From: Lama glama
Taxonomy: Eukaryota
NCBI GenBank assembly: GCA_028534125.1
Contig: CM052847.1
Location: 17,918,001-17,982,000 of the forward strand
Reading direction: 5' to 3'
DNA length: 64,000 nt
The first letter of the stretch is position 1; each line of letters opens with the position of its first letter. Shown here one piece after another: positions 16,451 to 40,208 of this stretch. The notes under the pieces are model-generated. The model saw only the letters and a list, made by a program, of their open reading frames with translations, was not told where the DNA came from and did not search any database. Position numbers and translations under genes: made by a program.

Positions 16451-16642
16451 ATAGTGCCCCGTGACTTAAGTGCATCGTGAGGTTCCTGCCCATCAGACAC
16501 ATGTTTGCATTTTAATGGAGCTCATTCTCACTGGGAGGGGTCCTTCTAACAGTGTCAGCAGTGGAGTTGAGTAGTCTGGGGTTTCTGAGACTGTGAAACA
16601 GTTGTTCAATCTGCCTTTACTTTCTCACTTTTGTGTTTTTAG

Positions 16643-16691
16643 ATGCATCATCCCATTCAGATGAAACCTGCAGATAGTGAAAAATCAAACG
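16643..16691 (+). CDS. CELF2: CELF2 coding exon (about exon 4), 49 nt, MHHPIQMKPADSEKSN(A), end of RRM1 and linker
   Basis: Acceptor ttttgtgtttttag|ATGCAT, donor AACG|gtaggt; phase 0 to 1; too short for the ORF track. Confidence 0.96.
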
Positions 16692-17891
16692 GTAGGTGGT
16701 AACCAACGATCTCCTTTAATATATGGGTTTTTTTTAAGTGAAGAAGTCAGGTGGGGTGGGAGGAGCTGGCCCCAGGTGCTGCTTCTCTAGAGGAGGCAGA
16801 GGGAAGTGCTCCAGGCAGCTTCCGGCATGACTGGTACCTCCGGAGTACCACAGACTTCACTCCTGCCTCCTGCATCTCTGCTGTAAAGATCTGTGAAGAT
16901 GCCACAGGAGATGGTTTTATGTGGGAGTTGATCTGTGTGGTGGCCCTGGGCCACTCCTCCCACAGAGCAGCCCGGGCACCCGGTGGTGAAGGGTGACCTT
17001 ATACCGGGCAGAGAGGGTGAGCGAAGGGCATCGCCCACTGAGCATTAGGCTGTCTGTTCTCCGCTCTCCTTTGGCTTTAGACTGTCTCCTCGCACTTTTC
17101 TCGAAGTCGTGCCAATGCATTTGCATCCAGATTCATTCAGAATTCAGCCTCTGATTAAATAAACATACGCTCAGTGCAAAAAAGTGTGCATTCGACAAGG
17201 TTGGTGAAATAATGGAGAACTGCCTCTCCAAGACACCAGAGGGTTGACAGTCACATTTCTCTCTTCTGAAGTTTTTGCTTCCACTTATACAAACCTTCTG
17301 TCCCTGTTTTGTTCTTCAGATCTACTGAAATGTATGCTAAAGGAACCTTCCGAAACCTCAGCGCTCCCCTGTCCCACAGGACTGACGCCGTCAGCCTGGT
17401 TTCTTTCCCACAGGCCGCTGTGCACCTCATTAATTAGTAGTCAGGGCAGAAGCCACGCATTTAGGGATCTGCGTGTCTGCAGATGTAAACTATGACAGGG
17501 CTCGACCTCCCTCCACAAGACACTTTTTGCTCGTTGTAGTGCGGCCCATTTCCTGGCTCCACAGACTAGAAGGTTTTGAGGGAAATTCCATGTCGTACGG
17601 TGGTACTGCCAGTGCCTGCGTGGTCCTGTGGTGGGGGGTCGACGCTGGTGCTTTACCCGCCACCTCCTTGCCGGCCCCACGCTTCTCTGAGCATCTCATT
17701 CCCATTTTCCCGCAGTACGTTATACAGACGTGGCAGTTAGGGTCGCTGGGGCTCAGGTCCACCACTGCTTGTTGTGGGATCTTGGTCCAGTCCCTTCTTT
17801 CCTTTATTGACAGTTACTCGTCGATTACTTACTGTGTGCCAGGCGTGTTGCTGGAGCTGAGGTCACAGCAGTGATTTGAAAAAAAGAAGGA

Positions 17892-18039
17892 GGGGAGGGC
17901 ACTGCTCAGTAGTAGAGTGTGTGCTTAGTGTGCACGAGGTCCTGGGTTCAATCCCCAGCACCTCCGTAGATACATAGATAGATAGACCAATGAATCAACC
18001 GATCTGATTACCTCCCCACCGCAAAAAAAAAAAAAAAAA
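17892..18039 (+). mobile_element. Vic-1-like SINE (first of a tandem pair)
   Basis: GGGGAGGGC...GCTCAGTAGTAGAG...GAGGTCCTGGGTTCAATCCCCAGCACCTCC with poly-A tail. Confidence 0.9.
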
Positions 18040-18050
18040 TTGTTTTTAAA

Positions 18051-18204
18051 GGGACTGTAATAGCTCAGTGGTAGAGCACATACTTAGCAGGCATGCAGTC
18101 CTGGGCTCAATCCCCAGTGCCTCCATTAAATAAATAAATGAGCCTAGTTACCTCCCTCCACCCTCCCCCCCAAAGAAAAAACAAAAATTAAAAGAAGAAG
18201 AAAA
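18051..18204 (+). mobile_element. Vic-1-like SINE (second of a tandem pair)
   Basis: TAGCTCAGTGGTAGAGC...GTCCTGGGCTCAATCCCCAGTGCCTCC with A-rich tail. Confidence 0.9.
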
Positions 18205-19074
18205 GGACACAAAAGAGGCTGTCCCGTACCTCCCAGAGCTCAGCTTGACTGCTGGTTTCAGTGTCTGATAGTCACTGAAAGACTGAACTTCAGTCTCCTC
18301 GGTCGTAAAGTAGTAGCTGCTTCTCACAGGGCAGCTTGCTTTCTTTTTCAGACCCACACAAGGTAGCAGTGCTCTGTGAAGGATCGAGCACTTCTACAGA
18401 ATGCTGGTTAGCATCACCACCCAGAGTTCTCCCTGGCCTGTCGGGGTCTGAGCGAGTGTGTCTGCCCGGGTGGAAGGCCGTATCCCCTGCCCATCTGCTC
18501 CAGAAGTGCACACTTACAGTCTGTTCTGTTCCTCCGGGGAGAGAGGAGGGACGAGTTTAGACTTTGTGGGGTGAATTCCATCAGTGAAGGTCACCTTAGC
18601 GCATCCGGCCGCCAGGAGATAGATGCTCCCTGTGCCTTGGCCCCGGATTCTCTGAACCATTTCAGGATGCGGGCCGTGGATGAAGGTCTGTGGAAGGGAG
18701 TTGGTCTGAAGCTTAGGCTGTAGTTATAAATGTGACAAATTAGAGAACCAAGATGAAAATGTCTGACTTCAAATACCCAAGTAGTTGAACCAAGAAAGGA
18801 TGTCTTTGGCATTTTCTGCTGCGTGGGCAGGAGCCCTGACTGTCCCTGGGAGAGCTGCCGGGGGTGGGGGGGCTCCCAATGGCCAGCTGCCTTTGCTGTC
18901 CAGTGTTGACTCTGGACCTAGAACCACAGCAACAGGACAAAACTGCCATGGTCCCATGCAGTTTTGCACAGTCTCAAAAGCCAAGCAGGGTGAGATGCTA
19001 TTTTACTAAGAAGGGCAAATACCTCAAAATGCCATTTTTCACGAAGCGTGTCTGGGTAGCAGATAAAAACTATT

Positions 19075-19295
19075 TGGAGGCACCCAGACTTGACCCCGGA
19101 CCCTGCACTTACTGGCTGTGACCTTGGCAAGTCCCTTATTCACCTTGCCCAGCCTCCGTGTCTCCACCTGTCAGCGGGGCTAGGGTTGTGTAGTCTGAGC
19201 TCTTCCTGTAATGCCCACCTTATGAAGTCACCAAAGAATGTGCAGGGAACACCTGCACAACTTAGCTTGATACCTGGCACGCAGCGAATACTCAC
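19075..19295. mobile_element. MIR SINE
   Basis: cacttactggctgtgaccttggcaagtcccttattcacc...cagcctccgtgtctcc. Confidence 0.65.
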
Positions 19296-22211
19296 TTTGC
19301 AGAGTTGGCGGCGTAACTCCAGCCCCTGGAAGCAGGCATTTTGGTGCGTCCTCAAAGCAGAGGCCATAGCACAGATCTGGACATAGGAAGGAAAGACCCC
19401 CAGACCTTCCTAATGGGCCAGCTGACCCTTGGCTTTAGAGGTTGACCTTCATTTTCTGAATTTCCAGTGGGGGAAAAAAATCAAATAATGTAATAGACCA
19501 AAAGCTGCTTTTAAAGAGCTCTCCTTTATGAAGCCTTGGGTGGAACCCCACCTCACATAGCCATGAGCAGACCACAGGGTTCTCCTTGGACTTGATTTGA
19601 GGAATCAGGAGAAATGTGTCATTTCACAAAGCCAGGGATAAGAGCTGCGAGCCAGTTCTGATTCCACATGGTATTTTTGACAGGTAAGCATAGCTTCCGC
19701 AGCTCAGAGCAAGCAGCGATTTCTTGGGCTCAGATGCTCTAAATAGCGCCAGTAGTTGTGAAAGACGCGTAACGAGCTCTAATTGCACTTTTGGTGGGGG
19801 GCAGTTTGCTGACATTTATGGATAAGACAAAGGGCTCATCACAGTTAGACAGCCCCTGTCTTCATTATCAGTGTGTTCAGATGTCTCAAACTTCATATTT
19901 GCTGAGCAAGAAAGGGCTGCTCATCGCAGATTAATTAGTGATGGACAAATGAATTCCAGAAAAGCAGTCGCTCTCGGAAGCTTTTGTCCATCTGGGGATT
20001 CTGAACCCTGCAGCAAGCCCAGAAATGCCCTTTTATCTGCCCGTCATTTTTATGTTGTACCGAATGGGCTTCCAAAATCTCCGTGGCTTCCTAGAACCCG
20101 CCCGTCCCGTTGGCTCTAGGTTCAGCCGCAGCCTCTGGCTCACTGATGCAAACTCACTGCCTCTTAACTTCCTGTTCTTGTGCTTCGGCTGTGCCAGGTA
20201 TCCAAAAAAAGAAAAAAGAAAAATCCTACTCTGGGTTGGCAATAAAATAATCAGGGACTTGAAGAATACATTGAATACAGACCCAAATTTCAACAACATA
20301 CCCCTTCGTTGGTTATTTCTCTACCGTACCAAGTAGGGTTGATGTTACTCAGAGGAAGGGCGTCTGAGGAGGTGTGGACCATTTCAGGGGCACTCGTGCA
20401 CACAGTCCCTCTGTTTCCTTCTCTAGACCATGGGGGGCACCGTTTTCCAGCTTTCAATCCTCTATCAATAGGCCGGGAAAGCACCCGGCTGTGCAGGATG
20501 GGAAGTAAAGGATCTGAAGTTGGTGTAGCAGTGGGTGGTAAGAAAAGCATAGGGGCCACCTTGGGTTCTGCACTTGGGTTCTCGGTGGTGGAGGGTGGCC
20601 AGAGCCAGCGTTCACTGTTAGGTCTGCTCCTGGCTTCAAGGATTAGTTTTCACTCTGTCGACAAGAGTGTAAGGTCCACCCTGCTTTAACCTCCAACCTC
20701 GCAGCTTGTCAGGGGTCCTTAGACCCTCGAATCCAGAAAGGCCATTTAAACCTCACTCTCCTCCAGGGCTCTGAAGCCCGTGTCAGCCGAGCGTCAGAAG
20801 AGTCAGGATAACTGACACTGTCGGGGAGGGCGATGGCTTGTGCAGGGAGAAACCACGGGGCGTTCCCGGGCAGTCGCTTTCTGATGTCCTGCAAGATGAA
20901 GAAATGATTTTGAAATTCAAAGCAGAGAGACTCGTGGATTTGGAGGAAGTAATTAAATGCCATATGTTAGCACTAACACACTGAAAAGCTGTTAATGAAT
21001 TCAGGCCGCCCCGAATCCAGGTGTGACTTTGACAGATTGTACACCAGGGTGTTAGTACTGACTTAAAATTAAGAGTTTTTTTTTAAAAAATCAAGTTTCC
21101 AGTTCCTGAACTTTAAAAAGTCCCCATGTACATTTAAGATTAACCCCTTCTCATTTATACCTAGGAAGGGGAGCAGGCGGTGGTCGCTGGTATGAAAGAA
21201 CTTTCAGTTCTGCTACTGACATTAACCCCACCTGTGCCACACCGGGTACCTAAAAGTACTTCCCCTCGCTCATTCATTGGTTCTTCTAAAGGAAAATAGA
21301 CTTTCCTTAGAGGGCAAGGGCCTTATCTTTTCATTCTTTTTTTTTTTTTTTTCAGTTCCTCTAAAGCATTTAGCAGAGAACTGTGACCATGGTAGGTTTG
21401 TTTAAGCAGTTGGCATTCTTGTGACTGAAAAAAAAAAAAAGAAAAAAGAGTGAAATGCTTACTGCCTGTGAATTCTTAGGAAAGACCCACCAGGAAATTC
21501 ATCCAACATTGATGGAAAAGTTAAATGAATTCAAGATAATTATGTTTATTTAAAATGTAGACAAAGCTGTTTAGCCATCCTGAGAATGGGAATCCGAGGA
21601 ATGAATTTTATGAATAAATTTTCACCGGAAGAGCAGGAGAGCTCCAGGGAGAGGAAAGCTGGGTATTTGTACTTATTCCCATTTTGCCCTTAAAACAAAC
21701 AAGACCCAACTGTTAAAACCACAGAGCTACTAGGGCTGCAAAAGATTGCAAACATCCAGGGCCCTTTGTACATGCACACACGTACCCACGCACACAAGGA
21801 GAAAGTCTGCACCAGCCCTAAGCTCTTCATTTTTCAGATCGTTCCTGTTACCGACAACAGTGAGAGTTACCTCCCATCTCCCTGCCTGTCTGAGTTACCC
21901 CTCCGTGGTGCCCACGAAGTCTCACTCTCTTCCTAAGTGGCTTCCTTTTGCTCATACTCATCTTAGGAAAAAGTCCTTTTTGACCTCACTCAGGAGCTGC
22001 ACATCTAACTTACCGTAGCCTCCCCCGAAACTCAAAGCCTGAACATTTTTTGCTAAATACTGTAATTGAAGATTTACTGGGGAAACCAAGGGCCACCTGG
22101 GACTTTATCATTTGCTTTTGTTTAAAGGAACTGAAACCTGATTCTTTAGGACAGAAGGAAAATACAACAGGAATTTTTTTTTTTTTACCTTTTATCAAGA
22201 TACCAGCTGGT

Positions 22212-22338
22212 GGGGAGACGGTGTAGCTCGGTGGTAGAGTGCGTGCTTAGCATGCATGAGGTCCTGGGTTCAATCCCCAGTACTTCCATTAAATAAATAA
22301 ACCTAATTGCCTGTCTCCCCGCCAAAAAGACTTTTAAA

Positions 22339-22381
<43 letters not shown>

Positions 22382-22407
22382 CACCAATCTCTTTAAAAAA
22401 AAAAAAA
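22212..22407 (+). mobile_element. Vic-1-like SINE with target-site duplication and (TAA)n tail
   Basis: A/B boxes; TSD AAGATACCAGCTG 22197-22209 and AAGATACCGGCTG 22408-22420; (TAA)n at about 22343-22380. Confidence 0.92.
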
Positions 22408-23928
22408 AAGATACCGGCTGTAGTTTCCTTGAGGTGGGAGTCCCAGAGATGAGGTAAGGATAGGGTCAGGATGGGGGACGAGAACTACAGCTGGACACTT
22501 TCCCTCCCTCCTCTGCCCCATTTCCATCAGTCCCATCCAGTCCCATCCAGTCCCCTCCTGGTTCAAGGCAATGCCACATCCTCTCGGGGCCCTGGAGTGT
22601 TAAGGAGTCTGGCATCATGAGGGAGACCCAAGGCTCCCATTGGAAAGAAAGGACATCTTCTGGGGCATGTGATGCTTCTAACAACTGGACCCTTGTTGTG
22701 CCAACACCACCTTCGAGTTACGGTGCTTTCATCAGTTTCCAGTAGTTCACTTACTCTCACAGGAGAAAGAAGGATTTCTTAAATATAGAAATCTTCATCT
22801 ATATGAAGCAAGTGGCATCCTTGCCTCCTCCCAGGAATCAGAGCGAGTGACACCCACTGCCCGCACTTCCTTGATGAAGCTCAAGACAGGCAGTTGCCCT
22901 GGACCACCTGGGACCCTCCTTGTGCATCAAGCCCCTCTCTGTGAGGCTGACTGTTGGCCAGTCGTCCTGAGCACAAGCTTGTCGGTTTGGGGGAGAATCT
23001 CAAGCCATCAGAAGTAACCCTTCCCTATTCTTTACCCGCTGTCAGCTTCCACGGTTAGAATTTGCCGTGACACCCAAGATGCATTTCTGTTCATCAAGAT
23101 TCCTGCCTCTAAGTGGGTAGAATCGTACTGCTCCTTCCTTGTTCCTTTTTTCAGTCATGGTTTCTCCCTGAGATTGGGGCCACCTGCCATGATTCTCAAG
23201 TAGCCTTGGCCCCACTCACTTCACTAGAATTGCCTTCATTCTTAGTTGTAACGTGGAGACCGCGCAGGCTGCCCTGGCTGGGACTGCGGAGCCAGTGCTG
23301 CCGACAGAAGGTCACTTACCTCCTCTCTGGAAAAAGTAGCTTCTCTCACCTGTCTTCTTCTCACCCGCATCAGTGGGAATGAAGCTTTTGAAACCAGGGA
23401 AGGAGAATGTTTTCTTCCGCTGAATACTTTATTTAAAAGTTTTATTTACTGCTCTCCCACTAAACTGTGTCTGTTTCTGTTGCTTCTCCTCTCTTGAACG
23501 TTTTCTTTCCCTTTCACTCAAGTTAAAAGAAGATATACCCAAAAAAAGAAGGAAAGAAAGGCAAACTAAAATTTGTATCCCAAAATATCTCTAGGGAACA
23601 GTAGCGCTTAGCAATTACTCAGAGCTTTGACATTCTAGTAAACACATTTCTGTTTGTTTCCAAATGGGAGAGGAGGACTTAAAAACAGTGTTTCATGTCC
23701 TATGAAGTCGTTTTATTAGTAAGAGCAAGCTCCCAGCATTGAAATCAGAGATGAGATGTCGAGGAAGGGCTGGGTTGGGGAGCAGGGGCGAGATGCGTGT
23801 GGCGCTGAGGAAGGCAGCCTGGGTATCTAAGGAGTTAGCCTTGGGACCTGGTCAGATGTGGTGACGAAGTGTTGATTACAGGGAAGAAGATGAGATGGCC
23901 TTTCTCATCCATTCTCTCTGTCTCCTAG

Positions 23929-24063
23929 CCGTGGAAGACAGAAAACTGTTCATAGGAATGGTTTCGAAGAAATGTAACGAGAATGACATCCGGGTGATGT
24001 TCTCTCCGTTCGGCCAGATCGAAGAGTGCCGGATCCTCCGGGGACCCGACGGGCTCAGTCGAG
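23929..24063 (+). CDS. CELF2: CELF2 coding exon (about exon 5), 135 nt, (A)[44 protein letters not shown](G), first half of RRM2
   Basis: ctctctgtctcctag|CCGTG ... CGAG|gtgagt; RNP2 motif LFIGMV; phase 1 to 1; within ORF 23895..24167. Confidence 0.98.
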
Positions 24064-27000
24064 GTGAGTGTGCTGCCTGGAAAGTCTCCTCCCTCACGTG
24101 CAAATTGGAGCTCTGTGTCCCAGTCAGGGTAGACGTAGCCACCGCATGCAGCCAGAGGTCACCCTGAGATGCGTCCCCCGGGACGAAGTTACCCGACCTG
24201 AACTTTTCACCACAGCTGAAATGATCACCTTTTATTTCTCCAGTCGAGGAGACCTTAGGGCCGACATCCTAGCTCAGGTTAGCACTGTCAGACGGAGGAA
24301 GCCCACAGGCTGCCCTGTCACCACACGTCCCTTTTCTGGCTGAAATTGAGGGAGATTTGGCAGGGGGGTGGGGGAGCTGGGGTTGAGAGAGAAGATCTGC
24401 TTTTTGCATCTTAGTCCTCTGGCTTTCTGCCTGTGCCTGAGAGAAACGCTGAGGGTGTGGGCCTCTAGACAGAGAAATAAACCATCCTCATGTAGCACAG
24501 AGCAGATGTGGACTCGGTGTTAGGGTTGTATTTCAAAGAGCAAAACTCCTGGAGTCCCAAGCGCAGGGAGTCCATTAAGTGACAGAGAAATGACTTTGTC
24601 CAGGAGAAGATTGTAGGTTCTTCTTTGTCACCACAATAGAGGCAAAAGCCAGGGCCCGAGCCTGGATGAAAACCAGTGTTTCCCACGCAGCGACGGCGGA
24701 GTTGGAGATAACTGTTCTCTTTCCACATTTACCTCCCGCTTTGACAGTGACACACGCCTCCTTCTTAGAACCGCTCATAAAGGTTGTCACCCTGTTCCCA
24801 GTCATCAGACTAGTGTCCTGAGTCAGCCCGGGGAGGCCCAGGTGCACCCATAAAGCGCATTTATTTGTCCATTCTTGTAAGAAATCTGTGTTTTTGCAAC
24901 ACAGAGAAGGTTTCATTCAATTCATGTAGTTTTCAGTGCACATTCCATGGGGCTAATGAGAACCGTCTCTCCTCTCCCAGTCTCTGGTTCTGGGTGTGCA
25001 CTGCCACCCCAGACCACGTCTGGAAAGAAGAGGTTAAGACCAGTAATCAAGGCCAAGGCACTCATCTCCCTAGTTTTACCTAACTCAGCGCCCTGGGAGG
25101 AGGAAGATTTGTTCCTTTGATGTTCAGACAGAAAGCTTCATGCTGTCAGAATTGAAGGCACAGGGAACAAAAGTTTTCCACCTGCCCCCACCTCCAGAGC
25201 CCCAGCACGGAGGTGGTCTGGAGGAATAACTCCTAGCTTGTGGTCCCTATGTTTTCTTCTGAAGGTGCTTTAAAAAAACGGGGGAGGGGGGAGACATGGA
25301 AATGACAGTTTACATTCTCTAAGAGTTCTGAAACTTGTGTTACCTAACACTACCTGGAAGATGTGAGTCTAAAAGCTGAATAAGGCATGATGTCGAGTGG
25401 GGTCCCCAAGCAGGGGGGGAGGCTGATCTGTCACTTGCCATCTGTGCCTTGAGCTGTACCACCTAACATATTTCCTTGTGCCAGGGCCCTGTACCACTTC
25501 TGGCCCCCGCACAACCTCACAGGCAGAAGGATCCCAGGATTTCCACCCTGGTTCCCTCTGTGCCATCCTGGCAGATTCCCACGTGGCGAGCTCAGCTTCT
25601 CCCCACTCTGATCCTCTGATCCTGGGCAGCCATGATGGTAGATGCCCACATAGGCAGACAAACCAGGAGCGCAAACACCGCCAGACAGAGCAGCATGGCT
25701 GAGTGAAAACTTACATATGCAGGAAAGACACAGCAACGTTTCTGTGATCCCTTTTCTGCTGCCAATTTAGTAATAAGAACCGCTATTCCCTCCGATTATT
25801 TTTCTCTGACTTCCGTGTTATCATTGCATTTTTGCATTCACCAAGGCATACAGCATGGAGAAAGAATGGACAGGCAGGCCCTTAAGTACTAACAGGGAGA
25901 TTTACGGTGCCTGGGAGGTGGATGGCCACAGGGCCCAGTCCTAGAAATTCTCCTGACATGAAACATGGGCATGGTCCATTCATTTTCCTATCTTGTCCTT
26001 CAGTTCCCCCAATTGAAAATGGCAGCAAAGTATCTGCCCTGCTCCTCAAAGGACATGATCAGCTCCTGCCGTGGGAGGCTTTTTGTATAAGCAGACCATC
26101 CGTAGGGTTTCGTGGAGGCCTTGACTGTGAAGTGGGAAGACTGGACATCCTGCCCTCCCTCTCCCAGTTTACAAGCTGACTGTCCATCTGTCCAGTGGGG
26201 ACAGTGATCAAGAGCACTGGTGCCAACAGGAGCACTGGTGTCTAGAGGTCTTTGAGTGGACGTTAGTTACCTCTGCAGGTGAGGTTTTAAAAGAGCCAAC
26301 ACTTTCATAGGAAAGAGCGGGACACTGCTTGACTGGAGAACTTGGTCAGTTCGAGCTGCCGTTTGCTCGATGAAGCAGCACTTGACACCAGAACAGCCTA
26401 CTTCTGCAATCAGTTATGTGAGCACTTCATCAGTATTTTAGGCAAATGCTGGTTGAAAGTCCTCCTTCCTCCCTGCCCCCTTTCTTTTTAACAGAAAAGT
26501 AATTTCTGACCAACTGATGAGAATTCCCTGTGGCAAAAAAAGAAAAGAAAAGAAAAGAAAATATTCATTTAGAGCCATTTGTTCTGAAATATAAAGACAG
26601 ACAGTGGTACATTTTTCAATTAGCAGGACCCAGGGACTCCTGGGGACTGGGGACTGTTCCCGAATCAGTGTATTTGTTGACAGAACAATTCTCTTTCATG
26701 CTCCTCTTTTGCTTTCATTAAAGAATTGCATTTTTGCAATCAAATATTAACAAGTGTCTCCCATTAGCGGCACTGGAGATCAAGGGGTGCTCAGCATTTC
26801 TGGTCTCAACGCCTACTGCTGGCTCAGCTGTTTACAAAATAAATAAAAATGAAGTGAAATGAAAGCTTGGCTGCTCCGGGAAGTATCTTCTAGTGCTAAA
26901 CCGGGGTACAAAGTAGTCAACAGAAAAGGTTTTAAATCAATCCATTTGATTGATTATGATGAGGGAGATGAGCTGTTGGGCTGTTCACATTTGTTTTTCT

Positions 27001-32513: not shown

Positions 32514-32599
32514 ATGGAAAGCGATTCTCTCCTGTGTGGATTGTTCACATGACAATCACAGATGTAAACTTTCACCACCTCTCTCCTCGTTCATTCATA

Positions 32600-32676
32600 T
32601 CCCTTCTCTCTCTCTCTCTCTCTTTCCCTCCTTCCCTCCCTCCCTCTCTTCTTCTCTCTCTTTCTCACTCTCTTTC
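32600..32676. repeat. (CT)n/(CCCT)n microsatellite
   Basis: cttctctctctctctctctctttccctcccttccctccc... Confidence 0.9.
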
Positions 32677-35600
32677 TGATTTTTCCCCTAATGACTGGAG
32701 ATGCACATAGTGAAACCTTCCACTTAGTCTACATTCTTTTTGGAGCCTTTTATTGCAGGGGCCCAGGTCCTGCCATGTAAAGTTCATGATGCCATGTAAG
32801 CCAAGTATCATTGTGTACCTCAAAGATCGAGGGCGTCCCCCAGCATGGGGGTGGCATGGATTAAACCGTAACCACCCCCACTCCAAATTGCAGCTGGCCC
32901 TGCGCTACATCACAGGGTTCGTTCTTTTCTTTTTAGTTTTTGTTGTTTTTTTTTTTTAACGTGGGGTCAAGTTATCTCTAATCTAGACAAACAGAATTGC
33001 GTTTTTGCATCCAGAATGTTGGAGAAAGTTTATACTTCTCCCACGTCCATTAACCAGTGCAAGTATTCACATATGAGAGTCCCTCAAAAAATTAATTTGT
33101 CACCTTATTAAAAAAATACGAACAATAACCAAGAAACACAAAGGCTCAAGTTTGGTCTCCTAATGAGAGACAGTGGCTTTTGGGGAAGATGAATATTTAA
33201 TGGGCGTGGGTCCCCGGAGGTAGACAATGGCTCTGTAATTCAAGTCTGTGATTTGGGTCATGGCCTTTCAGAATTTTGCACAAAAGCATTCCAAGAGTGA
33301 GATGCTGTTACTTACTCTGTATTGTCTGACAGAACCCTTCGGGAGTGCATGTTCTGGTGTATATGTAAACTGTATCTCTGTGTGCGGGTGATCTCTTCTG
33401 GAGGTAGCTTTGTGGTGTTCTCTGAAGTGATGTTTTTCATCTTTCAGAAAAAGAAAAAAATAATTTTTTTCGGTTTTATTTTAATGTGCCGAAAGTTCTT
33501 TCTTGTTTGAGCTTCTTTTTTTGCCTCCATTTGGGGGGAGGGGATATTTATTAATTTTTTTTTTTTTTGTCCGTTTGTTTTTGTTTGTTTTTTTGCAATG
33601 CTGCATCTCCCGAAGCATGCCGGGAGCTCAGTGATCATCACGGGTCATGTTTTGTGGGCAACCTTTTTAGAGTGAGCCAGAGGGCGGGTGGAAGGGGGGA
33701 AAGGCGTGTGCATGGCATTGTCATTAAGTGTTGACCGTCCTTTTCTGAGTTTTGATACATCAGCATTGCAAAGCCTCTTGTCTTTTTCGAACTTCCTTTT
33801 GACTTTAATATTCCTAACATATCTTATATAATCACTGTGTTTTCCTTTCAGTGCAATGCATTTTTAAGACACTCACTCCCTCCCCCTACGTGAAGGCCAG
33901 CTCAGGTGAAAATCGGCCACGATAAGAGAGAATTAGCAGAGAATTTGAAATGTCTAGGAATCCAGTTTTGAACAACATGCACATACACCCGTGATCATGG
34001 TTTCGCATTCCCCCACCCCCCGCCTTTTTGCATCTTGGGCTGCTCCGTTATCGTGGACCAGTCTGGTTTCCAGCTACATGTCAGTTTGGAGATGGAAAGT
34101 GAAAGTACTGATAAGAAAAAGAAAGCTGTGACCTGTATTTATTATCTTCCATATATATGTGTTTCATTCTTAATTATTTTTATTTCCTGTCCTTGAGTGA
34201 TTTGTACCTAAATTGGTCTCACCTTAGATGATTTTTTAGCCAGAACCCTTTCAGCTCTGTTGGAAGTTCTGCCACCGCACCCAGTTCCTCCACCCCGGGC
34301 GCCCGCCTGAGCGGAGGTCTGTGTCCTCCTGTGTTTTCCCAGAAGGAGGCTACAAGGATGCACAGCAGAACTGGGTGTGAGCCCGAACCAGGGAAGTAAT
34401 AGGCTCTCAGAAGGAAAGGAACTTACGATAGAGAAGGGGACATGTTTATCCTTAAAGAAACCCTCGATCCTTTGTGAATATCACTATTATAAGAAATCAA
34501 ATTCAATGCGCTTGTTTTTAAATCTGGACATCCATGCTTAATCAGCAGGGCCCTCAGACACTACAATTTCTTTTTTTTTTATTTTAAATTTCTTGTTTAA
34601 TTCAAAAATACTGACAGGTAAATGAAAGATTACATATGACACAGCCTCATAGTTGTACAATTGAAGTTTGTTTTTTTGAATTAACTACGTTATTTTCAGG
34701 ACCCAGGCTCACACCTTCAACCAAGATACATTATCTACGAGATTTGAATTCAGAATGATGTGAATATCAAAGTTTGAAAGAATACTTTTTAAAAAAAAAT
34801 CATTAATTTTTATATGGTACCTAGATTTTTCCACTTTCCTCCAATCTCTCCCCATCCTGTTTTTCCCTTTCATGGTTAATCCAAGTCATTTTTGAGCTAT
34901 AATTATTGGCCTAATTTTCTGCTTTTATAGCATTTTGGGGGCACTGAAGGAAGAAAAAAGCCAACAGTAAGTGTACTATTAGGATGAGATGCTATAATTT
35001 GTTACAGAACAAATTTGATACAGTAACAGCCCTTTTCCGTGCAAAACCCTTGCTTTCTGTAATTTCCACCTTCAGAGTGTTTTGCTCTCGTTAAAGTGAT
35101 GAAGTGCTGAAATACAGAGCAGATGAAGAAAAATAAAGTATAGATTTTTTTCTTAATGGTGGAAATACTCCTTTAAGAAATTTACTGACACTTAACACTC
35201 AGTGCTGTGATGTGACCCCCAGAGCTGAAGACCAGGTCCGTTGGAAGTTCACAACTGAAACAGCCACTCACTTTTCTCACATTTTGGGGGATAATATCAG
35301 ACCTGATAGCCTCACGTATTCATAGCTACATCCCCAGTAACTCCCCCAGGTGATAAGAAAAAAAAATGCAACTTTGTTTTTGTAGGAGAAAGAAAAATGA
35401 CCCAGAAGGAAAGGGGGAAAGCTCATTTCAATAGGAGTAGAAGATTTCTGAGAAGAGGGGAGTTTCAGTAAAAGTCATGCTGAGTTTCAATAAAAGAGTT
35501 TTTTTAATCACTTGAGGAGAATTACTTCTTTTTATCTCAGCAGCTTTAATTGTGATGAAATGTACAGGCAGGTATGCAGAGAGAGAGGAGAGTTGGTTTC

Positions 35601-36590
35601 TGCAGAGTACTTACCGAGTGGTGAACACGGAAAAGGTGCTTTTGAAAGGAAGTCGTCCTGCCTAAGGTGTCAGGCCCTTAGTTTCCCTCATGATTTTTCT
35701 CTGTCTCAGACATGAAATCGTTCTATTTTAGAACCTTGGCCGTTTCTCACTCACTCACTCCCCCTCTTCCTTGCTTTTTAAAGGAAGGGACCATGGAAAG
35801 AACCTTCTAGGACAATGAGCTTAATTAGGAAAAGAAACCAAGCAGTGATCTCTGCTATTTAAGATCTATCTCCTTTGATGAAAATGTGCTTCTGATACAG
35901 GAGCCCCTGGGAACCCGCGTACAGTAGATGTCATACAGGTGGAGAAACCCTTCTGAAAACGTGGGGACAGGACACTGGCCCGTGCCTGTGTTCCCTGAAT
36001 CTCTCCTTCCTTCATCCACGTTCGTAAAACAAAACCCACTTCTCCCAATCATATTCCTGGGTCAGTGGTTTCCCATGGTTCCAAAGTTCAAAGTGCATAA
36101 CTAAACATTGGAAGGAATGAAAACTAAATGAGCAAGAGGCATCTTCATTCCCCTTACCACTGCTCCCCCTTTGTTCCCTGCTCACACATGGAAACAGGCA
36201 GACACACAAAGACAAGTGCATCTTTGAGACAAGCGAACCGTGGAGCTTAATAAAGAAAAGTAAGGTCTCCTGTCTCTGAGGAGGTCCTGGGATGGTCGAA
36301 GGAAGACCCGTGAAGAGAGAAGGCAAGGCAGTGTCATAATCAGAGCACGGAAGCACATGGCTTCATCGACCACCAGAGCCCCCGAGACACCGGTGACAGT
36401 GTCTGGAACTGTCTGTTGATGGTACCATTCCGAGAAGAAGAAAGACCATCAGACCGCTTAGAAACCATGCCAGCCCCGTCCCTGGGCTCCCGGGTAGTTC
36501 AGGAAGCTAGACCCCGTGCTGACTGCGCGTCATGAGCGGAGTCGACCCGGCTGTAACCCCCTGTTCACTTTCCGCTGTGTCTGACCACAG

Positions 36591-36749
36591 GGCTGCTCTT
36601 CACCCATCGTGGTGAAGTTCGCTGATACCCAGAAGGACAAGGAGCAAAGGCGCCTCCAGCAGCAGCTGGCCCAGCAGATGCAACAGCTCAACACTGCCAC
36701 CTGGGGGAACCTGACGGGTCTGGGCGGACTCACCCCGCAGTACCTGGCG
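36591..36749 (+). CDS. CELF2: CELF2 coding exon (about exon 7), 159 nt, [53 protein letters not shown]
   Basis: ctgaccacag|GGCTGC ... CTGGCG|gtaagt; phase 0 to 0; end of RRM2 and start of the divergent domain. Confidence 0.98.
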
Positions 36750-39700
36750 GTAAGTGCCGGGGACCGCGGGCGGCCTGTGGTCCCCTGTCCCCTGAATCCA
36801 CCAAAACACGCATTTCTGGGACATGGTGAAAGCCAGGAAATTATTGGAATCAGCATTGGTGCAGAATATTTTTCCAGGTGAAAACGATGAGCATAGGGAC
36901 GTGACTAGCTTCATGCAGCCTGATGGAGGCTGAGCAGAGCCCCGCAAGGCCGAATTGCTGATCAGCGTTTCAGCATAATATCCCGCATGGGGAGGGGGCG
37001 GCACACTCCACAGGGGACTCTGTAGCCGTGGGTGGAGCACTCACTGCCTCCCAGGTCTGCGGACGTCAGGGCCTCAGATGGAAGCCCCCTGGGACTTTCC
37101 TTCTGTGGTCCTGGGTCTTCCCAGCAGAGCCATGTAGACTCCGTCACATGTTTCTGTATCGATTTGAAACCAAAAAAAAAAAAAAAACAGATTCTGTTTC
37201 ACACCGAACAGACCTAGTTCTCTCAACCAACCCTGACATTTCGTTGTTTCTAAACTTTCACTTCCTTGTTTCTGCCTCTCTGGTGCTCATTTCATTTTGT
37301 CACTCTTTATTAAAATACTTTAACTGGGCTGTGAGATAGTTCCTCCAGTAAGATCTAAACAGCACAGAGCAGTGACCTCTAGTGTGGACTGTGAGGTATC
37401 TTAGTGTAGCTTGGGAGTGGTAGAAAGCAGCTGATACTCCTCTAAGATTTTCTTTATTTTTGCTTAAACTGCTGCTCAGTCATACGCCTCTACCCCACTC
37501 ATCTGCTTTGGAACCCCAATGCTGGACTACACGTTTACGGATACAATTTCATATTGTGCACCGGGGTCTTTACCTGTAGCCTCTGTCAGTGTGTGTCCCC
37601 TAATTCTGTCCTTTGACCTGTGAATGTCCCTCTCAGGATTGTCTGAGCCATTAGCCTTCCTTTGTAGCAGACCCAGTCCCGTTCCGTCAAACAGTCCTCC
37701 CCGTGACCTTGAACGTAAGATCAGCCCGATCGCACAGGTGAGCAAAGCAAGAGACCTAAAGAGGTCCATGACGTTAGCCAGGACCATGGGGCTGGTGGCC
37801 GGGTGGGATGTCAGCCCTCCCTCTGGCTGTGCTACTTCTCTGAGTCCGATGTGACCCCCGTCCTCTTTGCACCCACCACGCCCCAGTGCCTGTCGGGGTC
37901 TGACAGGTACTAGCTACTCAAGATGTGTTTGGATGTCTTGCCGGGGAAGCTTCTCCTGGTTTCATCTGAGTCGTTAATAAAAACGTACTGACCAAGTTTG
38001 CTATCACCTTCCAGCCGTTTCTCCATTTTATCCACAAAGACCACGAGAGACTTCGTCACATGCCTCGGTAAAACCCCACCCTGTCTTTTTCTTAGTCAGT
38101 CAGTCTTGAAGTTTCATGATGGTTCTAGCTGAACCATCAGTTCTTTTTCACCAGGCTGAGCTTTTCAGTTGTTCCCAGATCGTCATCGGTCTCATTAGAA
38201 GAATTTCTGTTGGAGATGGATGTCGAGCTCACCCTTTCATAGTTTCTAGGAATCCAGCTTCCAGCTCCACCATTTCTGAAAAGCAGGACCCCTGTGTGTG
38301 TCCCTGGTCTGCTGGCCCATTTCCTAGGCCCCCCATCCCCTTCCCAACTTACAGGAATCTCTGGTCTGTGTTTCTTTGATCACATCTGAAAATTATTCCT
38401 GAACCCTGAAGAGGAATTCATCTCCGCCCATTTAGAAAAGCACGTGCTTACAAGCGCTATAACTATGTTTTCTCCCACCGTGGGCGTCCGCTCTTTCTCA
38501 GCCAGGTGTGTGCTGCCCCTTTTGGCTGGAAGCGCATGTCTGTGGAAGGACCCTAGGCCTGTGAGGCATCTCCTGCCTCTGTGCTGGGGACAGATTCTGA
38601 CTCTGGCTCCCCAGAGAGTGGGCGTCAGTAGGCAGACTCCTTGGAGGCAGTTAATGACACTCCAGGTAGGGCCACTTATCTCAGTAGGTGTCACTAACCC
38701 CTCACAGTGTCTCCAGAGCTAACTGAAGTTTGCTTAACTCATTTTTTTCAGTGTCTGATAGAGAGAGGTAGGGCTTGCCGCCACAGGGAATGAGGAACCC
38801 AGGAAATCAAGCCAAGAGGAGGGATTTCTATCAAAATGGATTGTCCCTTGCTCCTTCCTCCTCCTCACTGCATAGTCTGTCTGTGTGTCGTGTCTAGCTA
38901 GTGTGTTACTCCGAGTCGAGAAGGATGAGAGAAGGTTGCAGACGTATTTCTGGTAACTGTTAACGTTCATCCCCATAATATCATTGTAACTAAGACTTGT
39001 TCTACTCTGCTCAGTGCTTCTAAGTCAACTGATAGATGCCCATGGCTGAGTCATACCCTGTTATAGGGTTTCCATATTCTGAAGCCAAGGAGACCTACAC
39101 ATACCTGGAGGAATGACAGTGCTCTCTGTTACATTTTGCAGAGCTCCGAATAAACCCTGAGAGCTTATCTTTTAAATAGTCAATTCATCTGGTTCCTCCC
39201 AAGCTCATAAAATCATAGCAGGTTTCAGTAATAAATTTGGCAAGTCTATGCTTTGAGGGCATTCACATACAGGAGGTAGCTCCACACTTGCTCCCACGTA
39301 CAAACTACGGCTGTGTTGATCAGCCTTAGCGAAAAGAGAATTCAACTGAATTGGACAAATAAAGGAGCCCTTTCGAACAGGAACCACCTGCCTTTTCCTT
39401 GTGGTACCCACTGATGCTACGTGGGGGATAATGTATTTTTCGAAGCTCTGGAACAAAATGCAGACCCCTTTGCCCAGCTATCTTAATTTCATTTTAGGAG
39501 ATGCTGATGTATTTATAATGCATCGCATCAAGGTATATAGCACCAGAGACTCCTAAGTTCTGACAAATAGTGTGTTTCTCTCTGCCAGCGAAGACCACCT
39601 TAAAATGGGTGACCGTTGTCTTGGTCCTGTAGAACAGCTGAAACTGGACAGCCATGAAGAGATACATTTATATGTGTCGTTACTGCGATGATTTCTCTGT

Positions 39701-40144: not shown

Positions 40145-40208
40145 CTCCTGCAGCAGGCCACCTCCTCCAGCAACCTGGGTGCGTTCAGCGGCATTCAGCA
40201 GATGGCTG
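40145..40208 (+). CDS. CELF2: CELF2 coding exon (about exon 8), 64 nt, LLQQATSSSNLGAFSGIQQMA(G)
   Basis: cttgtccttcccag|CTCCTG ... GCTG|gtaagt; phase 0 to 1. Confidence 0.97.

Follow-up and report, generated by a model that had tools for sequence, protein, structure and literature searches.

Intron 6 of CELF2 may be a regulated retained intron that adds to the self-control of the gene by staying unspliced and not via three poison exons. We favour this reading tentatively and give it a little under an even chance. In this reading, intron 6 would be excised slowly or conditionally, possibly because binding of CELF2 near the branch site of exon 7 slows the excision. The U-tracts of the intron and an acceptor at 33852 could contribute as a U2AF-binding decoy comparable to that of SF3B1 intron 4 (PMC6097662). 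The region studied, positions 32514–34000, had been proposed to form a module of poison exons; it consists mostly of background-level sequence, in which one candidate exon, 33852–33905, stays plausible. Splicing-factor genes are well known to contain retained introns and decoy or poison exons, and CELF2 would thus be one more example of the mechanism and not a new principle.

The window, that is, the whole 64,000-nt stretch of Lama glama DNA that was analysed, holds part of a mammalian CELF2 gene, in plus-strand orientation; the exons, splice sites, motifs and helices described below are all on this strand. Exon 4 (16643–16691, 49 nt) was located with tblastn, exon 5 (23929–24063, 135 nt) encodes the first part of RRM2 and ends in phase 1, and exon 7 (36591–36749, 159 nt) starts in phase 0. 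Human CELF2 exons 4, 7 and 8 are 49, 159 and 64 nt long, and the exon lengths in the window are equal; the human 49-nt exon 4 is a regulated skipped exon in organoids (PMC10842930). At exon 8 of the window, tandem CAG acceptors (40154 and 40157) lie 9 and 12 nt inside the exon, and both keep the frame set by the main acceptor at 40145. Between the peptides of exons 5 and 7 there is a gap of 27 residues in 113 of 120 homologues (28 residues in five, and two could not be parsed). Combined with the phases of exons 5 and 7, this gap gives an 80-nt exon 6 that runs from phase 1 to phase 0, and we infer that it sits in the unreadable stretch directly before 32514. The original prediction had named the gene as CELF2 and the hidden exon as an RRM2 exon, and both assignments are right. 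The readable part of intron 6 starts after the unreadable stretch and spans 32514–36590 (4.1 kb of a total of ∼4.1–4.3 kb), so the region studied is its first 1.5 kb, or first third. It carries a (TCTC)n tract at 32605–32677. When exon 6 is skipped, the reading frame stops at 36623 in exon 7, 124 nt before the end of that exon.

Self-limitation of CELF2 by unproductive splicing, which had been put forward for this locus, is already published, and its route is the skipping of exon 6. CUGBP2 represses exon 6 of its own transcript by way of GU-rich motifs around upstream branch sites, and inclusion of the exon in a reporter dropped from 100% to 18% (Dembowski and Grabowski 2009, PMC2715136). Loss of the exon causes a frameshift with a stop in exon 7 (PMC2715136). 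This corresponds to the situation found here, as the gene is the same, the regulated exon lies directly upstream of the region and the skipping stop falls at 36623. The difference is that the elements mapped in the published work are located 5′ of exon 6 and therefore outside 32514–34000. The available part of PMC2715136 describes neither a cryptic exon nor retention for intron 6, and the pattern at the exon 7 acceptor described below is an observation of the present analysis.

Evidence for retention comes from mouse smooth muscle. Llorian et al. (2016, PMC5062968) list a Cugbp2 ‘Retained Intron’ at mm9 chr2:6525229–6528928 (elements E11–E13), with array estimates of higher retention in the differentiated state, both for aorta (dI +33) and for bladder (dI +46). 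The primers given in that study place the E8–E10 event of Cugbp2 at exon 4/exon 5, so E11–E13 are likely exons 6/7. In mouse, the end of exon 4 and the far end of the event are 20.5 kb apart; the distance from the end of exon 4 to exon 7 is 19.9 kb here and 21.5 kb in human. Judged from coordinates only, the intron retained in mouse likely corresponds by orthology to the intron 6 studied here. Regulated retention of what is likely intron 6 is thus on record for Cugbp2, but as a mouse array prediction and with no mechanism: in the part of the study covered here, E11–E13 is not among the validated events, and the prediction comes from two rows for one mouse array. Retention in aorta rose in 216 introns, and since these shifted alike, the Cugbp2 event may belong to a global shift (PMC5062968). 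A different Cugbp2 event of that study, the validated ‘bleeding exon’, was also considered as intron 6 and was rejected, because its primers sit at exon 4. This event (an alternative 3′ end or retention, with extension of exon 4) maps by its primers to intron 4, corresponding to 16692–23928 of the window (PMC5062968). Fourteen RNA or probable-RNA contig sets share 0.25–0.38 of the sampled words of 32514–36760, which could mean that one species contributes a portion of the intron or that a relative contributes all of it; we do not count this as evidence.

Within the open-licence literature, searches listed no publication on CELF2 intron retention that covers intron 6 and none on a poison exon in this intron. 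CELF2 is absent from the main texts of PMC6547761 and PMC3967051, nothing on intron 6 was found in the available parts of PMC12179342 and PMC10723155, and PMC4448682 has a single splicing row for Celf2, which concerns a 3′ end event. The splicing programmes of brain, heart and T cells depend on the dose of CELF2 (PMC4962813). If the feedback by intron 6 retention is true, it would complement exon 6 skipping with a nuclear reservoir or a decay path, and would provide an antisense target to raise CELF2.

The exon 7 acceptor (36553–36590) is the weakest of the five readable real acceptors, with a score of 3.7 versus 5.6–7.4 for the others. All acceptor and donor scores come from an approximate weight matrix and not from MaxEntScan. 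Upstream of exon 7, a GU at −38 and a UGUGU at −15 have a YUNAY match between them. This is the perimeter pattern described for CELF2 (UGUGU and GU 10–30 nt apart around YUNAY, within 100 nt; PMC2715136). Two of the five real acceptors carry it, namely those of exon 4 (16600–16643) and exon 7; with a perfect YUNAY required (the paper allows one mismatch), it was found at none of the three candidate acceptors in the region. The background frequency is 16 of 208 AG sites that score at least 3.5 (about 7%). The pattern at exon 7 was noticed post hoc, is low in information, was defined for skipped exons and is located outside 32514–34000.

A more elaborate form of the retention model would turn this acceptor into a second self-limiting arm of CELF2. 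In it, CELF2 would bind the UGUGU and GU elements at its own weak exon 7 acceptor, and the 33852 decoy or poison exon would be gated by a mutually exclusive helix (33761–33773 paired either with 33591–33603 or with 33852–33859), so that intron 6 would be detained at high CELF2 levels. We consider this a long shot. Such an arm at the exon 7 acceptor is unreported, and if it is true, three acceptors of one pre-mRNA (exons 4, 6 and 7) would carry the same CELF2 code.

Within the region, the three AG acceptors that had been claimed are present directly before 32759, 33448 and 33852, with scores of 5.8, 7.3 and 7.1. A fourth acceptor (32917–32937), overlooked earlier, scores 8.1; it has no donor after it and runs into a U tract. 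These four compare with 87 sites of at least 5.8 in the whole window, which is 2.0 per 1487 nt; at least three such acceptors occur in 16 of 43 tiles, and at least four in five of 43. The acceptor density of the region is therefore at background level and not beyond chance.

The first of these acceptors would define a 37-nt pseudo-exon (32759–32795) with a weak donor at 32795; where a branch point would normally be expected, it has no match. It has no stop of its own, and its inclusion shifts translation into the frame that stops at 36623. The pseudo-site at 33428–33448 likewise lacks a branch-point match, and no donor above 2.5 was found within 400 nt of it. Since the U-tracts are sufficient by themselves to explain the extra acceptors, it is most likely that those at 32759, 32937 and 33448 simply arise from such tracts. 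A premature stop had been predicted from each acceptor. This is true of phase-0 read-through without a donor, which stops after 66, 20 and 13 codons from 32759, 33448 and 33852, respectively, but only 33852–33905 has an in-frame stop of its own. At the protein level, a search with the 66-residue phase-0 read-through from 32759 retained none of 20 candidates at an E value of 0.01, and 7-mer peptides of intron 6 occurred in none of 120 CELF2 proteins, mostly full-length forms from fish; both results are weak evidence. Intronic polyadenylation was set aside, as 32514–34000 contains no AATAAA, and ATTAAA occurs at 32860 and 33107 only. Two more pseudo-exons are located later in intron 6, at 34343–34617 (donor 5.2) and 35541–35571 (donor 4.4), and their donors are better than those of the candidates named originally.

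The best cryptic exon candidate (33814–33905) comprises a CTAAC at 33814 (−38), a 76-nt AG-free zone and a 54-nt exon at 33852–33905 with an in-frame TGA at 33891. This TGA has several junctions downstream, so that inclusion would place a stop more than 50 nt before a junction. The acceptor of this exon is the one convincing 3′ splice site of the three, and only 33852–33905 looks like a complete stop-carrying exon. It could thus be one real poison exon that is included at a low level, degraded by NMD and perhaps modulated when its first bases pair with 33763–33770. In support of this, 33852 is the sole plus-strand site in the window that combines an acceptor of at least 7, a CTRAC branch motif and a donor, and it is one of three sites with an AG-free zone of at least 60 nt. 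However, the combined criteria were set post hoc, and the minus-strand control also yields one site. The donor at 33905 is weak, with a score of 3.0 versus 5.3–7.2 for real donors. The pairing of 33763–33770 with the start of the exon reaches 0.41 and 0.67 in two folding settings but falls to 0.00–0.09 in the others. Human organoid long reads contain two novel CELF2 exons, with none near exon 7 in the eight of eight rows available (PMC10842930). CELF2 is also absent from one supplement file of a study of conserved cryptic poison exons, a file that may not hold the exon list. Taken together, we regard a functional poison exon at this position as unlikely.

The two organoid exons start at chr10:11,258,732, are 612 and 1133 nt in length and lie ∼12 kb upstream of exon 7 (PMC10842930), which places them outside intron 6, since human intron 6 lies directly upstream of chr10:11,270,666 (hg38). 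They are likely early in intron 5, and the matching place in the window is estimated as ∼24900–26100.

For the retained-intron reading, the relevant precedent for 33852 is the decoy exon. Large introns that are retained show an enrichment of decoy exons (Parra et al. 2018, PMC6097662). As in SF3B1 intron 4, we find a large (>1 kb) intron of a splicing-factor gene and short candidate cryptic exons that would contain stops. The SF3B1-type decoys differ in being highly conserved, with junction reads and U2AF CLIP, whereas 33852 is a candidate predicted from sequence. The main text of PMC6097662 makes no mention of CELF genes.

Stems bracketing the candidate exons had been taken as a gating device. 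Helices are indeed present, and the three best exceed 200 shuffles (P = 0.025, <0.005 and 0.01), but their pairing is low or depends on the folding window. Among real tiles, the two best helices rank only seventh and fifth of 43. Windows of 120 nt with z < −2 make up one of 33 in the region, compared with 8% of 256 background windows, and 33520–34010 folds worse than its own shuffles (z = +1.55). Pairing probabilities were derived from six folding settings, in some of which span limits cut or excluded longer helices. The only robust predicted hairpin is located at 32846–32880, with a pairing probability of 0.95–0.98 in the five settings that include it. It overlaps the GCATG at 32843 and contains the one at 32854, so both motifs are predicted to be paired. 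A 14-bp helix (33040–33210, with arms 33040–33053 and 33197–33210) has a probability of 0.06–0.47 depending on the window and contains no candidate exon. A 13-bp helix (33591–33773, with arms 33591–33603 and 33761–33773) reaches 0.00–0.19. Its second arm can alternatively pair with 33852–33859, the first bases of the 33852 exon (0.00–0.67 across settings); the two alternatives could form a possible switch, although neither form is predicted to be stable across folding windows. A metagenome scan for the arms of the 33591/33773 helix returned 14 loci, none of which is orthologous, as none is similar beyond the arms, and the scan is uninformative on conservation.

The helices that would bracket candidate exons have still lower or more variable probabilities: 0.00–0.06 for 33637/33995, which encloses 33852–33905, 0.00–0.09 for 33337/33615, and 0.00–0.67, depending on the window, for 33532/33888, a G-run/C-run helix that reaches into the 33852 exon. 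Most of the predicted stems are thus most likely incidental. Poison exons of BRD2 (exon 3b) and BRD3 are reportedly looped out by pairing of conserved complementary regions (PMC10789245, PMC11632617). The likeness to our region is that complementary stretches flank a candidate stop-carrying exon; the difference is that the flanking helices here are low or unstable in predicted pairing and do not provide the stable arms of the BRD2/BRD3 type. Four 120-nt windows elsewhere (24340, 29860, 37060 and 57940) have z of about −4 or lower and are stronger than any fold in the region.

Five (T)GCATG motifs had been reported for the region. GCATG occurs at five positions (32843, 32854, 33347, 33615 and 33710), but only two of these are part of TGCATG (33346–33351 and 33709–33714). 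Dinucleotide shuffling of the region (5000 shuffles) gave 1.1 occurrences, so that five is an excess (P = 0.003, or 0.009 by Poisson), and the count is the highest of 40 tiles, two others of which reach four. TGCATG alone is not significant (P = 0.07). The excess of GCATG is therefore mild but real. The region had also been described as carrying UG/U-rich tracts. It is U-rich and not UG-rich: its 91 U-rich pentamers are the highest count of all 43 tiles, whose median is 24, but GU-rich pentamers rank 18 of 43, at the median, and TGT[GT] was observed 26 times with 22.7 expected (P = 0.23). In G-run richness, the region ranks fifth of 43 tiles.

The GCATG excess raises the possibility that these motifs are downstream RBFOX enhancers that promote exon 6 inclusion and oppose silencing by CELF2, with helices shortening the distance. 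An RNA-bridge idea of this kind, in which helices shorten the distance for RBFOX sites, is said to have been put forward by Lovci et al. in 2013. Such a role would be compatible with retention of intron 6, and FOX has been named as a candidate counter-acting enhancer for a different CELF2 target exon (PMC2715136). The arrangement also resembles the (U)GCAUG clusters that lie deep in introns within LASR-binding sequence (PMC12435732), in that the GCATG excess occurs within sequence rich in U and G-runs. It differs in density, since there are at most three (T)GCATG motifs per 500 nt and the cluster rule of that study asks for at least four, and none of the 13 human CELF2 clusters in the available part of its supplement is near exon 7. 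Four of the five GCATG sites are moreover predicted to be paired, and only 33615–33619 is mostly unpaired. Without any added factor, the exon 6 reporter is already 100% included (PMC2715136), which also speaks against an enhancer. A role in exon 6 inclusion is thus decidedly unlikely.

Another possibility is that the intron is unselected and that all CELF2 feedback operates via exon 6 skipping. Slippage-prone U/TC tracts would then yield, by chance, both the pseudo-acceptors and the stems of A/U or G/C runs. This would account for the background levels of acceptors, GU motifs and local folding, and for the nature of the best helix, which is simply a G-run/C-run pairing. It is also in line with the exon 6 reporter, in which mutation of a UGUGU located 70 nt downstream of the exon had a negligible effect (PMC2715136). 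On the other hand, the top ranks for both U-rich pentamers and GCATG fall directly after a regulated exon, and the retention rows for mouse Cugbp2 (PMC5062968) also speak against it. We consider an unselected intron doubtful, but a serious possibility.

The full model of the original prediction, in which three stem-gated cryptic acceptors are read jointly by CELF2 and RBFOX and set the unproductive fraction of the mRNA, is very improbable. All of the motifs that it names exist, and its best helices are better than shuffles. However, three structure-gated poison exons are unsupported, given the background acceptor density, the donorless acceptor at 33448, the branch-point match missing at two of the three sites, the lack of GU enrichment and of the perimeter pattern, the unstable stems, and a GCATG density below the cluster rule. 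Regulated retention of intron 6 remains the reading that we prefer.

An Rfam search over the window gave no match in the region and three tRNA-like matches elsewhere. These matches are weak and are all located in intron 4, at 17904–17958, 18060–18118 and 22217–22288; they are probably the heads of tRNA-derived SINEs.
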